From Mobula hypostoma (lineage: Eukaryota): 64,000 nucleotides of DNA. Position 1 is the stretch's first letter; each line of letters begins with the position of its first letter. Of this stretch, positions 32,966-45,455 are shown one piece after another. Below the pieces are notes generated by a model. The model did no database searches. It was given only the letters and a program-made list of their open reading frames with translations, and had not been told where the DNA came from. A program made the position numbers and the translations under genes. The stretch spans positions 87,918,001-87,982,000 of the forward strand of contig NC_086108.1 in assembly GCF_963921235.1 (NCBI RefSeq), written 5' to 3'.

Positions 32966-34520
32966 AGTAACACACATAAAAGTTGCTGGTGAACGCAGCA
33001 GGCCAGGCAGCATCTCTAGGAAGAGGTGCAGTCGACGTTTCAGGCCAAGACCCTTTGTCAGGACTAACTGAAGGAAGAGTGAGTAAGGGATTTGAAAGTT
33101 GGAGGGGGAGGGGGAGATCCAAAATGATAGGAGAAGACAGGAGGGGGAGGGATAGAGCCGAGAGCTGGACAGGTGATTGGCAAAAGGGATACGAGAGGAT
33201 CATGGGACAGGAGGTCCGGGAAGAAAGGCAAGTGTGGGGGGGTGGGACCCAGAGGATGGACAAGGGGTAGATTCAGAAGGAGAAAAAGGAGAGTGAGAGA
33301 AAGAATGTGTGTATAAAAATAAGTAAGATGGGGTACGAGGGGGAGGTGGGGCATTAGCGGAAGTTTGAGAAGTCAATGTTCATGCCATCAGGTTGGAGCC
33401 TACCCAGACGGAATACAAGGTGTTGTTCCTCCAACCTGAGTGTGGCTTCATCTTTACAGTAGAGGCGGCCATGGACAGACATGTCAGAATGGGAATGGGA
33501 TGTGGAATTAAAATGTGTGGCCACTGGGAGATCCTGCTTTCTCTGGCGGACAGAGCGTAGGTGTTCAGCAAAGCGTCTCCCAGTCTGCATTGGGTCTCGC
33601 CAATATATAAAAGGCCACATCGGGAGCACCGGACGCAGTATATCAGCCCAGTTGACTCACAGGTGAAGTGTTGCCTCACCTGGAAGAACTGTTTGGGGCC
33701 CTGAATGGTGGTAAGGGAGGAAGTGTAAGGGCATGTGTAGCACTTGTTCCGCTTACACGGATAAGTGCCAGGAAGGAGATCAGTGGGGAGGGATGGGGGG
33801 GGGGAAAACGAATGGACAAGGGAGTCACGTAGGGAGCAATCCCTGCGGAATATATTGGCGAGACCCGACGCAGACTGGGAGACCGCTTTGCTGAACACCT
33901 ACACTCTGTCCGCCAGAGAAAACAGGATCTCCCAGTGGCCACACATTTTAATTCCACATCCCATTCCCATTCTGACATGTCAATCCACGGCCTCCTCTAT
34001 TGTAAAGATGAAGCCACACTCAGGTTGGAGGAACAACACCTTATATTCCATCTGGGTAGCCTCCAACCTGATGGCATGAACATCAACTTCTCTAACTTCT
34101 GCTAATGCCCCACCTCCCCCTCGTACCCCATCTGTTACTTATTTTTATACACACATTCTTTCTCTCACTCTCCTTTTCCTCCCTCTGAATATACCCCTTG
34201 CCCATCCTCTGGGTCCCCCCCCCCCGTCTTTCTTCCCGGACCTCCTGTCCCATGATCCTCTCGTATCCCTTTTGCCTATCACCTGTCCAGCTCTTGGCTC
34301 CATCCCTCCCCCTCCTGTCTTCTCCTATCATTTTGTATCTCCCCCTCCCCCTCCAACTTTCAAATCCCTTACTCACTCTTCCCTCAGTTAGTCCTGACGA
34401 AGGGTCTCGGCCTGAAACGTCGACTGCACCTCTTCCTAGGGATGCTGCCTGGCCTGCTGCGTTCACCAGCAACTTTTACGTGTGTTGCTTGAATTTCCAG
34501 CATCTGCAGAATTCCTGTTG
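32966..34520. mobile_element. Two Penelope-like element 3' portions in inverted orientation (GIY-YIG remnant + terminal repeat)
   Basis: QVRQHFTCESTGLIYCVRCSRCGLLYIGET...RFAEHLRS is a GIY-YIG endonuclease. 32968-33609 and 33850-34487 are near reverse complements. Confidence 0.92.
34390..34425 (+). ncRNA. Minimal type I hammerhead ribozyme motif in a Penelope terminus, intact core
   Basis: AGUC-CUGACGA-AGG gucucgg CCU-GAAAC-GUC-GACU: stem I, conserved core, stem II, GAAA and GUC cleavage triplet. Confidence 0.8.
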
Positions 34521-41566: not shown

Positions 41567-43217
41567 TGGAAAAAAATTAACTTTCTGGCTAAACATGCTG
41601 CAAAGTCTTGGATGTGTGGGTCTAGGTAACAATCAGGGGTGGTGGCCCTGTTAATGTTTCAGTAATCGCCACATGGGCGGCAACCACCATCGGACATAGG
41701 GACCATATGGAGGGTGAAGTCCAGGGGCTATTCGACTGGCGTACAGTTCCAAGTCTTCCCATGTTGGTGTATTTGGCTTTCGCAGTTGCCAGCTTTTCTG
41801 AGTCCAGTCTACATGTGCGGGCACGGCCAGTTTGACAATGTGGTGCTTGACTCCATGTTTTGTGACTGTTATGGAGAATGTGAACTTGATGATGTCTGGG
41901 AATTCGCCCAGCAGTTATGTAAACTCACGTGCAGTGGTGCGTGTACTTAACAGAGTCATTGTGGAGAACTTACGGGGGGAGCAGAGTAACGACACAAAAT
42001 GTTTGACATCCACAAGCCGGCAGTTCTTAAGATAGACTAACAGTCCTTGGGCACAGAGGAAATCTGTATCGAGCGGAGGTCTTGCCACTTTAGCCGGGAC
42101 GAAGTCCCATGTGTAACATCGCCCACTGAAGCAGAGTGTCACCCATTGTGACCTGAAGGTCTGGATCCTGCTTCCACTGGCGACCTCAGCGAGGTTTCGT
42201 TGCTCTGTGCCTTCTCATCGATCGGCGTTGCTGGCAGCACGCTCACTTGAGCACCCGTGTCACACTCGAAGCGTTGCCCTGAAAGGGTGTCCGTAATGAA
42301 CAGCAGATGACCCTGGCGGCTGGAACCCACGCTGTTCACAGACCTCTGATGTTCCGATGTGCTGGCACTGTTGAAGCTGCAAGGCAGTCAACACTTCCTA
42401 GCGTTTCTACCAAAGTGAGAGCGGTAAAAGCACAGGCCCGGTGTTGTCTGTTTCGCAGCTGCAGGCATCCTTAAGTTGAGGGTCTTGCTGAACGGGTTAA
42501 TTGAGGTAGAGAAAGGAGGAAGAATGATGCACTACTGCCAAGCTGAGGGTAGACTATCAGCCATTTTAGCAAGCTCGCTATAGTCCTTCACAGGTGCATT
42601 AGCGAGGGCTGTGCGAACTTGATCAGGCATTTTCTGCATGAAGTTCTTTAAAAATAAAACAAGGATGGTGATTTCCCTGGAGAGACAGCATGTGGTCAAT
42701 TAGCTCCGAAGCCTCACCATTGTCGAGACCAGGTAAGGAGAGCAATTGTTTGGTGCGCTCAGACCAAAAGGGTGTAAAAAGTGAGTTTTCAGCATCGGTA
42801 TTTATTGTGTTCAGGCGGCCACTCACCACTCTCACAGCCATGGAGTTGCTGAGTGACGCCTCCAGTTAGTAAAATTTGGAGTTATCGGAGATTTCTCGCA
42901 GAGCAAACTGGGCCTCAGTTTGCATGAACCAAGCGACGGCATTTTGCTCCCAAAACTCCAGCAGTTTCAAAGCGATTGTGTTGGCCAACATGCTCAATAA
43001 CTCCGGAATCGTCTTAGAATATCGGGGTCAGCAATGTAGGTTTTCACAAATAAAACAAAGTGAGGCATTTTATGTTTAATGAAACCCATAACAATTTTAT
43101 TGTACTGCAAAACCTAAACACAAAAGCGTGCTAATAACTAGGTTATCATGTCAGACTAGCCTATTGAAAGGAAACACCAACTCAATATCGGTGGTTGTGA
43201 ATTATGTACATTTCTCC

Positions 43218-43787
43218 TGGGGTGTATGGGGTGTCAGGGAGGGGTAGCACCTCTGGTGGGGGAACATGTCGCGTCCTTTTCAGGTGGTTTGTCCACCTTT
43301 GGTCCCCATCTGGCACTCAGCTCTCACCTGTGGCTCCCCGTAGCTGTTTGCACGTAACAGCGGCCACACCCCGAGCAATGGCTTCGACAAGCCAGCTAAA
43401 CCAGGTGAGGGTAGCCGATGGGTCTCAAAGCCTCGGTGAGATAGAGAATTGTCTATCCCAGCATGTGAAGACAGACTCCAGCGGATTGGGCGGACGAGAC
43501 CAATGGAAGCTTCAACGGTCAAGAAGGCGGTCTCTGCAAGCGTCATGGAACATGTAGAGCAGGACAAGACACAGAAGACGTCCTGGTCATCCACTGCACC
43601 TAGTCCCATCTCCAGCCATCTCAACTCTTGTCTTTCCACTGGTTCCAGATGGGAATTGGGAAGAGAGAGTGAGGCTGACGCTGTGCAACTCTCCCTCACT
43701 TAAATCTAAATCAAGCGCTAGTCTTGACACCATCATCCTCCACATTGGTGTTGAGGTCTTTATCAACGATGATGGATGAACAACAAT
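43218..43787 (+). mobile_element. Short non-autonomous RTE-type retroposon inserted in the Gypsy LTR
   Basis: TSD ATTTCTCC at 43210-43217 and 43788-43795; (CAA)n-like tail; no RT ORF. The RTE assignment is inferred from the tail and the 5' ribozyme. Confidence 0.75.
43228..43411 (+). ncRNA. HDV-like self-cleaving ribozyme (predicted fold)
   Basis: P1 GGGGUGU/ACACCCC, P2 CUCACCUG/CAGGUGAG, P3 GGC/GCC, L3 starting UCCCCGU, P4 UGGCUU/AAGCCA and J4/2 GCUAA, all in HDV double-pseudoknot order. Confidence 0.75.
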
Positions 43788-43813
43788 ATTTCTCCCAATT
43801 ATGTTAGTCTACA

Positions 43814-44730
43814 ATGGATCAGCGTACAGAAGGGAGATTGAAAATCAGGCTGAGTGGTGCCACAACAACAACCTCTCCCTCAATGGCAGCAAGGCTAAGG
43901 AGCTGATTATTGACCTGGAGGTGGCCCATGAGCCAGTCCTCGTCGGAGGATCAGAGGAGGAGAGGGTCAGCAACTTTAAATTGCTCGGAGTAAGAGGACC
44001 TGTCCTGGACCCCGCAATTATGAAGAAAGCACAGCAGTGTCTCTACCTCCTTAGGTGTTTATGAAGGCTCAGCATGATATCTGAAACCTTCACAAACTTC
44101 TGTAGATGTATGGTGGAGAATTTATTGACTGGCTATATCACAACCTAGTATAGAAACACCAATGCCCTTGAACAGAAAATCCACAAAAAAGAAGCAGTTA
44201 CAGCCCAGTCTATATTGGGTAAAGCCCTTCCCATCCACACGAAGCATTGAGCACATCCACACGAAGCATTGTTACAGGTAAGCATCATCCATCATCAGGG
44301 TCCTCCACCAACCAGGATGTGCTTTCTTCTCGCTGTTGCCATCAGGAGGAAGCGACAGAAGCCTCAAACTCACACCACTAGGTTCAGGAACAGTTATTAT
44401 CCCTCAAACATCGGGCTCTTGAACCAAAGGGAATAACTTCACTGAACTGTTCCCACAACCTATGGACTCACTTTTCCGGACTGTTCATCTCATGCTCTTG
44501 ATATTTATTCCTTATTTATTTATTATTATTTTTTTCTTTTTGTATTTGCGCAGTTTGTTGTCTCTTGCATACTGGTTGAACACCCAGTTGGTGCGGTCTT
44601 TCATTGATTCTATTATGGTTATTATTCAATTATGGATTTATTGCGTATACGTGCAAGAAAATGAATCTCAGGTTTGTAAATGGTGACATATATGTACTTT
44701 GATAATGAATTAACTTTGAATTTGAACCTT
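43814..44730 (+). mobile_element. Rex1/Babar 3' fragment
   Basis: AYRREIENQAEWCHNNNLSLN.SKAKELIID...KKAQQCLYLLR; 3' UTR ending in (TTTGAA)n. Confidence 0.8.
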
Positions 44731-44916
44731 GAAGTTGGACTGAAGTGAGAAGGCCCAGGCCAGAGAGCGAGGAACAAGCGGATGTTTGGCCAATTTAAGT
44801 GCAGGGCCAGATTGAAAAGGTCAGGATGTCGGGGCCAGAGGTGAGGGACAGGCCGGTTTTCAGATCACTCCTCTGCGAGGTTTACTCATGTCTGCACTGA
44901 ACCGAGGCTGTGGCCT

Positions 44917-45455
44917 TGTAATATGAAGGGTTAGTTTACTTGCTGTTCAAAAGCTGCTTCCGCCATGCCGGTCATTGATTGGCCCATTCGGGGGATGCAG
45001 CACCTCTTTCCCATTGGCTGCCTTGTGCGCCACGGCACCGGTGTCCGGTTCTGGGCGCCTCAGTGGTATAAGTAGCACGTGCGAGAGACTCACGGGCTTT
45101 TCCTTTCTCTCCAGGACTCCTCTTCACACTGAGGGCGCGACCAGTGCTGAAGAGCCACTGGGAAAGTGTGCTGTAAATGTAGTAGGGTCCACACACACTT
45201 AGCTAAGTATCTGTTTATTGAATGTTTCGTTTTGTAGTTGTGTAACTTGAGGAGACCTAAGGAAGTTAGAGGTGTTACTGAATAATCAGTGTCACAGTTT
45301 TCATAACCTAGGGTGGCTTAGATGTGTTCTTGTCTGACTTAGAAGTTTGGTCAAATGTTTTACTGTTTGTCGGTAAATAAATGGCTAACGTGCTTATTCG
45401 TAATCAGTGTCTTCTGTTTCACTTATCAATCCCTTGAACCTGCTTTCCCGTAACA
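44917..45455 (+). mobile_element. Solo LTR (539 bp)
   Basis: TGTAA...TAACA termini; 5-bp TSD GGCCT (44912-44916, 45456-45460); internal CCAAT, TATAAG and AATAAA. Confidence 0.88.

Follow-up and report, generated by a model that had tools for sequence, protein, structure and literature searches.

A bipartite RTE-type retroelement of Mobula hypostoma with a predicted HDV-like ribozyme and a putative helix between the ends of its parent LINE

L3 of HDV-like ribozymes is usually short, at 7–8 nt, and one member of the family, drz-Agam-2-1, is said to have been linked to RTE elements by Ruminski et al. in 2011. A link between HDV-like ribozymes and RTE elements is echoed in PMC5786205. HDV-like ribozymes are described as having a P1 of 6–7 bp with the cleavage site at its first base, and drz-Agam-2-1 as being activated by a P1.2 “pinch” made up of short linkers, P1.2 and an extended P2 (PMC4908430). 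The U and G of L3 are reported to form a reverse wobble (PMC3774820). Bipartite internal-deletion derivatives have been described for RTE, Ingi, Vingi and R2 elements (PMC5786205). The same source calls the reason for such derivatives unknown, and a search of its text for pairing, stem or hairpin had no hits.

Ribozyme-headed non-autonomous LINE derivatives are thus already known, and the type of element discussed here is not new. It lies in a 64,000-nt stretch of the Mobula hypostoma genome (the window), where a first-pass annotation made from the letters alone had proposed that the DNA holds a non-autonomous retroposon and that its 5' end falls at P1 of an HDV-like fold. Both parts of that proposal agree with the present analysis. 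The best overall explanation of the locus, and probably the correct one, is a bipartite, ribozyme-headed parasite of an RTE-type LINE. Two features of it have a wider bearing: a hairpin inserted in L3 of the ribozyme fold and a putative helix that would join the two ends of the parent RNA.

Element boundaries and parent LINE

The element occupies 43219–43787 on the forward strand, as do all features below unless noted, and is one old, decayed member of a family with thousands of matches in the genome. A first-look family search with the 570-nt query gave 4775 candidates; 40 of them were scored and 30 retrieved. Divergence of the window copy from the consensus of 30 is 3.5% at non-CpG and 26% at CpG positions. 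An 8-bp target-site duplication (TSD) at 43210–43217 matches 43788–43795 exactly, and an (AAC)n microsatellite tail, delimited by copy alignment and tail comparison, ends the element at 43779–43787. Such a tail and TSDs are also found in bipartite non-autonomous LINEs. Exact TSDs of 7–13 bp are present in 23 of 55 distinct full-length copies and abut G1 directly in 14 of the 23, so that the true first base of the element is G43219. The first-pass annotation was right about the duplication but began the element 1 nt before the first P1 strand. The T at 43218 is additional and lies outside the TSD in the window copy; a T stands at position −1 in 22 of 37 full-length copies and frequently closes the duplication, as it does in 8 of the 14 TSDs that abut G1. 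It may be a non-templated base on the cDNA, or it may reflect priming on a target T or microhomology. Non-templated additions have been described for R2 (PMC3774820).

Whether copies start at the P1 G, a question raised by the first-pass annotation, is answered by a census of 59 copies in two sets chosen by 3' sequence only (29 and 30 loci). Thirty-seven begin no more than 3 nt from G43219, the G1 of the first P1 strand, and four slightly further in; none begins at the second GGGGUGU, and the remaining 18 are truncated further. The element was also said to have no ORF. This holds in substance, but the consensus does contain an ATG frame of 110 codons. It was rejected as a real protein because 9.4% of 1000 shuffles reach the same length, and it is broken in the window copy. 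With its longest consensus frame at shuffle level, the element family has no protein-coding capacity. A tRNA-derived SINE identity was likewise rejected: there is no tRNA head and no B box, and the head is the LINE's own 5' UTR.

The element family was also seen in contigs of several organisms (four runs, assembled contigs). In the window, the downstream flank at 43796–44470 (forward strand) is presumably a decayed piece from the RT C-terminus of another LINE, and the upstream flank at 42600–43050 (reverse strand) is presumably a broken gag-like fragment. A nested inverted repeat of 1.5 kb, with arms 90–95% complementary, lies at 32966–34489.

The element is a bipartite internal-deletion derivative in which the first ~522 nt of the parent are joined to its last ~50 nt. 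At one locus found by motif search (L155), the whole 5' part of the element is followed by an endonuclease frame. The parent family has 447 candidates in the same genome, and its consensus, built from 18 copies reaching the 5' end, equals the element at 517 of 522 bases, in agreement with the RTE relationship that the first-pass annotation had suggested. At the other end, the element tail ends 13 of 20 extended parent loci, at 80–91% over 36–51 nt (one of the 13 at a larger distance). The parent, ~4.1 kb in total, has a single ORF with an APE endonuclease followed by an RT and then a short 3' UTR, and one copy retains a 1109-aa frame with RVT_1 and Exo_endo_phos. Its loci resemble the element in that the 5' end tracks P1 G1. 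The parent 5' UTR that remains downstream of the ribozyme fold, at 43412–43721, is 99% identical to the parent consensus and 71–78% to a second RTE family over element positions 233–506. The deletion junction forms a loop at 43733–43745, at the parent's CAT repeat.

Four of 30 copies carry a tRNA-like SINE in this loop. In these copies (L154, L167, L168 and L170), the insert of ~150 nt sits exactly in the junction loop, at element position ~518–521, with both flanking arms kept. Three of the four share downstream letters, and they are probably one composite subfamily that combines a ribozyme head with an internal Pol III-type unit.

The parent is designated RTE-type from its architecture, the tree holding no named RTE reference. 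Its nearest named protein relatives are from ray and shark (82% over 47% of the query; 77%), and the protein matches a DUF6451-bearing LINE at 28% over 1013 aa versus 23% over 453 aa for a CR1-like one. Homologues carry the name “Craniofacial development protein 2”, a label that is presumably RTE-derived. No protein relative was found in viral contigs.

Two other candidates for the parent were rejected. In 30 + 18 loci of DUF6451-type RTE families, neither similarity nor a ribozyme was found; one such locus (L090) held by chance the tail that leads to a sister RTE family. This young sister family (698 candidates) resembles the element at 71–78% over part of the UTR only and has a different, GC-rich 5' end. 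It shares the 3' hairpin with the element, and its visible 5' sequence contains no HDV-like fold, so a ribozyme is not needed by every relative.

Several further observations concern the 5' ends of these LINEs. In the sister family (L131, L143, L147 and L139 versus L132, L134 and L148), the 5' end is very GC-rich and is inverted in L147. The family occurs in two forms, with and without a ~330-nt pre-ORF leader, and the ends of the deletion are not GT-AG. A leader ~300 nt upstream of the ORF (L235–L314) is conserved at ~62–79% in DNA among loci whose proteins are 34–64% identical to the parent, and the short element stops just before this conserved pre-ORF leader. RTE copies at L125:1940–2350 and L139 have 5' inversions, with a UTR piece opposite to the 3' piece.

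Architecture and covariation of the HDV-like fold

The 5' region of the element contains a nested double pseudoknot, P1-P2-P3-P1.1-P4, in HDV order. The 5' strand of P1 (43219–43225), a helix of 7 bp whose first base is the element's 5' end, pairs with 43366–43372, which directly follows the 3' strand of P3 (43363–43365); cleavage is predicted just 5' of G43219. P1.2, between 43229–43238 and 43309–43318, contains the second GGGGUGU in its 5' strand and closes a structured J1/2 domain at 43239–43308. Its pairing probability within J1/2 is 0.97–1.0, its 3' strand was placed by folding and helix comparison across lineages, and the J1/2 folding z is about −3.0 for the consensus and −2.3 for the window copy. 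P2 has 10 bp, between 43321–43330 and 43402–43411, and the 5' strand of P3 (43332–43334) is invariant in 30 of 30 copies. L3 (43335–43362) has 28 nt and consists of a UCCNNGUA core, an inserted hairpin at 43343–43361 and one G. The P1.1 partner and J1.1/4 follow at 43373–43378, then P4 at 43379–43394 and J4/2 at 43395–43401. The candidate catalytic residue, C43396, is C in 30 of 30 copies, in all 6 compared lineage rows and in L240.

The helix strings and the 8-bp TSD listed in the first-pass annotation, including GAGCAA, P4, GCTAA and C43396, were all found where it had placed them. Its P1–P4 helices are real and in HDV order, but it misassigned P1 (43228–43234 rather than 43219–43225), and P2 extends to 10 bp. 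Among the searches it proposed, a descriptor of HDV topology that tolerates an L3 of as many as 45 nt gave the element site, in both P1 registers, as the only match in the 64-kb window; with the same descriptor, none of 3000 dinucleotide shuffles of the 570-nt element was positive, and 11 of 30 copies in an unbiased set passed. An Rfam scan of 42000–45000 was negative, with no HDV-type family at E≤10.

The first-pass annotation also noticed the extra hairpin in L3, which recurs in families B, C1 and C2 and at loci L235 and L259; it is absent from L240. L3 measures 26–28 nt in the hairpin lineages versus 7 nt in L241/L253, L273 and L240. It is too long for a plain HDV-like member, and the fold is therefore classed as a variant working like the family. 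The insertion presumably lies where HDV extrudes a base. The two bases of the reverse wobble are kept, U43335 in 30 of 30 copies and G43340 in 29 of 30. The minimum-energy fold contains a competing extended P3 that excludes P1, and a reading in which the first GCU after the L3 core serves as P3' was rejected because it leaves no P1.

The window copy itself has decayed at one sensitive point. The consensus forms both pairs of P1.1, the window copy one of the two; A43374 is a private change there, with GA in place of the GG of 28 of 30 copies. The first-pass suspicion that this substitution weakens the copy thus appears sound, and the resulting C-A mismatch probably makes the window copy a poor cutter.

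The tandem arrangement of GGGGUGU had suggested, in the first-pass annotation, that both strands act as P1 and offer two cleavage registers. Each strand is perfectly complementary to P1' in families B and C2, the second strand is where one of 30 parent loci begins, and tandem P1 duplications have been described for R2 (PMC3774820). Two registers are nonetheless very improbable, given that the second strand is held in P1.2, where 43229–43238 pairs with 43309–43318 over 10 bp to close J1/2; a nested fold with P1 on the first strand is ~12 kcal/mol more stable than one with P1 on the second. Moreover, the second strand has drifted from P1' in relatives while the first covaries, as in L235, where the second mismatches P1' at 3 of 7 positions whereas the first pairs at 7 of 7, and 0 of 59 short copies begin at the second strand. 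By analogy, the second strand would be a P1 duplication later co-opted into P1.2, which fits the model drawn for R2 (PMC3774820). One copy (L007:1490–1520) has a third GGGGTGTA strand ahead of the usual two.

Comparison with relatives lends support to most of the helices. The relatives come from a scan of metagenome contigs, which gave 80 loci, and from a pattern search of the element's own genome, which gave 325 matches representing at least 2 more families, with 30 fetched. P1 has compensatory changes in L235 (U-A at pair 2) and L259 (A-U at pair 1). In L259, P1.2 keeps 10 of 10 pairs with several double changes; in L235 only its outer and inner parts are formed, with an extra base. P2 shows one compensatory double change in L259 and another in L240, and P4 shows three in C2 and three in L259 relative to the element family. 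The J4/2 C, the P1.1 pairs, P3 and the L3 U/G pair are kept across lineages. The covariation check proposed by the first-pass annotation is therefore positive for P1, P2 and P4, as well as P1.2, with P3 invariant, but not for the L3 hairpin, which has wobble changes only. This hairpin can form in B, C1, C2, L235 and L259 (5 of 5 intact lineages), with loops of 5–7 nt, although the search pattern for C1 and C2 fixed part of its stem and conservation there is partly by construction. Among the compared lineages it has no double compensatory change, the differences being U-A to U·G shifts and variable loops. In the window copy, CpG decay on both strands has produced “compensated” U-A pairs in P4 (43379/43394) and in the L3 hairpin (43356); such changes mimic covariation and therefore are not to be counted.

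The L3 hairpin appears to be an optional add-on, because L240 has the same P2 and J4/2 build with a plain 7-nt L3 and no hairpin. A canonical short-L3 ribozyme passes the descriptor in L241/L253 and L273 (3 of 70 loci), and a looser search finds the canonical motif in the 5' UTRs of further RTE relatives (L237, L263, L291, L294 and L306). L266 looks degenerate. An endonuclease tree (33 rows) has a supported clade (98/95) in which canonical carriers occur; some hairpin carriers belong to it and others do not, which suggests exchange of 5' modules or repeated loss among RTE relatives. Several canonical carriers have near-identical ribozymes though their proteins lie apart on the tree, a hint of 5'-module swapping. 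In prokaryotic and viral contigs, 0 of 129 pattern-hit loci pass the descriptor, and these hits are accordingly regarded as chance.

Two further families in the same genome have related heads. Family C2 (L318–L342), of ~530 nt, has the same ribozyme type with a J4/2 of GCCAA, a shorter L3 hairpin and a different 3' third and tail, and seems to be a chimera involving another RTE lineage. The autonomous donor of its 5' part is apparently L322, and L329 and L331 are separate bipartite derivatives. Family C1 (a subset of L315–L344) is an older short family, ~73% pairwise, that shares the L3 hairpin and differs in its 3' half.

These comparisons bear on whether the fold still acts. It could be vestigial or structural only, with catalysis disabled by the L3 hairpin and the 5' end set by an internal promoter starting at G43219, as Pr77 does in L1Tc. 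L3 is indeed three to four times the usual length, and the sister RTE family does without a detectable ribozyme. The first 77 nt of L1Tc are reported to be promoter as well as ribozyme (PMC3383444, PMC4035085), a precedent for one stretch being both (PMC3383444). A vestigial fold is nevertheless unlikely in light of the invariance of the catalytic C, the L3 U/G, the P1.1 GG and P3 across lineages whose endonucleases are 46–63% identical, together with the covariation of the helices. In addition, the 5' end tracks P1 G1 not only in the element family and the parent but also in copies of family C2. The reading preferred here is that the 5' 190 nt probably fold as an HDV-like double pseudoknot in read-through RNA, are cut before G43219 and so set the 5' end.

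Probable pairing between the ends of the LINE

At its junction, the element folds into a hairpin of 11 bp that stacks on the 3'-terminal hairpin (43757–43779), a structure common to the parent and its relatives. The 5' arm (43722–43732) comes from the parent 5' UTR and was identified by a test of Watson-Crick runs and by helix comparison; the 3' arm (43746–43756) comes from the parent's last ~50 nt and was identified by the parent tail match and helix comparison. In the parent, 3555 nt separate the two arms. The letters at these positions differ in the sister family, yet 10 of 11 columns still pair, with five double changes relative to the parent consensus. Both arms are also kept in the short C2 copy L331 and in the SINE-in-loop subfamily (4 of 30 copies); another short C2 copy, L329, has at most a shorter local stem. 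The C2 comparison covers the short copies L331 and L329 and not the candidate parent L322.

A broader test used 27 elements: 40 metagenome loci with a C-terminus, minus 9 without a UTR anchor and 6 near-duplicates, plus two families of the element's own genome. When wide windows were searched, the longest Watson-Crick run was at least 8 for 14 of 27 own pairs, compared with 42 of 702 crossed ones. With both ends auto-anchored, which omits the 13 of 27 elements lacking anchors and uses windows drawn after the pattern was seen, runs of at least 7 were seen for 13 of 14 own pairs and for 10 of 182 crossed ones. Nine shifted windows gave such runs in 0–2 of 14 each, and 12 of 14 own pairs share one register. 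Duplex energy was dropped as a test: over wide windows in the 27 elements it is not specific, the own partner being best in 2 of 27 rows and shifted windows scoring equally. Scanning the whole UTR in the parent by itself gave no significant result (30 of 200 shuffles). In LINEs of a more distant RTE type (L091 and L061), a 10-nt 5'-UTR segment complementary to the 3' end was noticed by eye; in a UTR scan it did not stand out, 55 of 200 shuffles being equally good.

Taken together, the paired runs and double changes make it very likely that an end-to-end helix of 8–12 bp exists in the full-length LINE RNA. What it would do is less certain. It may serve RT recognition, a role for which the case is close to balanced. 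It is also conceivable, if somewhat doubtful, that the helix is real but acts in translation or stability of an uncapped, non-polyadenylated RNA through 5'-3' communication, and that bipartite elements keep it as a hotspot for template-jump deletion. The RNA left by a ribozyme cut would be uncapped, and the 5' arm lies just upstream of the conserved ~330-nt leader before the ORF, as such a role might favor. However, non-coding derivatives keep both arms (the element family, L331 of C2 and the SINE-in-loop subfamily), and the 3' arm is stacked directly onto the terminal hairpin, a type of structure that LINE proteins are said to recognize (PMC5786205, PMC6007223).

Proposed life cycle and comparison with known systems

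The preferred model starts with read-through transcription across a copy of the element. The 5' 190 nt of the transcript would fold into the HDV-like double pseudoknot, with P1 on the first GGGGUGU, P1.2 set off by linkers of 3 and 2 nt, an extended P2, and an L3 whose 3' side bears a hairpin. Predicted self-cleavage before G43219 would release the element from host transcripts and define the 5' end of new insertions. The parent endonuclease/reverse transcriptase would then use target-primed reverse transcription, starting at the (AAC)n tail, to copy the RNA, with TSDs of 7–13 bp as the result. In full-length LINE RNA, the 8–12-bp helix would link the 5'-UTR segment with the sequence immediately ahead of the 3'-terminal hairpin. 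If the LINE enzyme recognizes this helix together with the terminal hairpin, a mobile deletion derivative must therefore keep both arms. The helix would also bring together exactly the two points that are joined in the element, which could have been born by a template jump across the base of the helix.

A joint reading extends this model, tentatively and as something possible rather than probable. The RTE lineage would recognize its RNA via a helix between the 5' UTR and the 3' end, 3.5 kb apart, and would for that reason give rise, almost alone among LINEs, to two-ended parasites and bipartite SINE tails. Many such elements would in addition be headed by active HDV-like ribozymes of a class with an L3 helix, which would move between RTE lineages as a module; descriptors built for a short L3 would miss these ribozymes.

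If true, a natural L3 helix beside the HDV active site would widen the structural rules of the family, suggest that animal genomes hold overlooked ribozymes and give aptamers a new graft site. The end-to-end helix would provide a testable answer to why only a few LINE clades make bipartite derivatives, a question left open in PMC5786205. It would also bear on RTE-based gene-writing templates, in which the payload is placed between cognate 5' and 3' UTRs (PMC13708176). A literature search found no L3 helix in HDV-like ribozymes and no RTE end-to-end pairing, with subscription papers, figures, supplements and Repbase reports outside its scope, and either may have been described before.

The ribozyme most similar to that of the element is drz-Agam-2-1, as described in PMC4908430. 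Both have the double-pseudoknot order, a J1/2 closed by P1.2 with short linkers and an extended P2, and both stand at the 5' end of an RTE-type element. Unlike drz-Agam-2-1, the element has a hairpin of 17–19 nt in L3, a P1.2 that begins with a repeat of the P1 strand and two extra bases between J4/2 and P2, and its cleavage is predicted.

In overall build, the element resembles the bipartite, ORF-less LINEs Bov-A, RTESINE, RTE-N2_Lch, RIME and NARTc, which are described as consisting of the 5' and 3' ends of a LINE with the interior deleted and as having a microsatellite tail and TSDs (PMC5786205). It differs in that its junction is a helix whose arms come from the two ends of the parent and covary across relatives. 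The R2 SIDEs (PMC6765202) and the trypanosomatid NARTc/SIDER elements (PMC4035085, PMC3414825) are likewise reported as short non-autonomous elements that keep the parent's 5' HDV-like ribozyme, whereas the element described here has a parent of RTE type (APE) and an expanded L3, and its insertions are dispersed in a large vertebrate genome. Finally, tRNA-headed SINEs are similarly short, non-coding, LINE-mobilized and flanked by TSDs, but the element carries neither a tRNA head nor a B box and has the 5' UTR of a LINE in their place.
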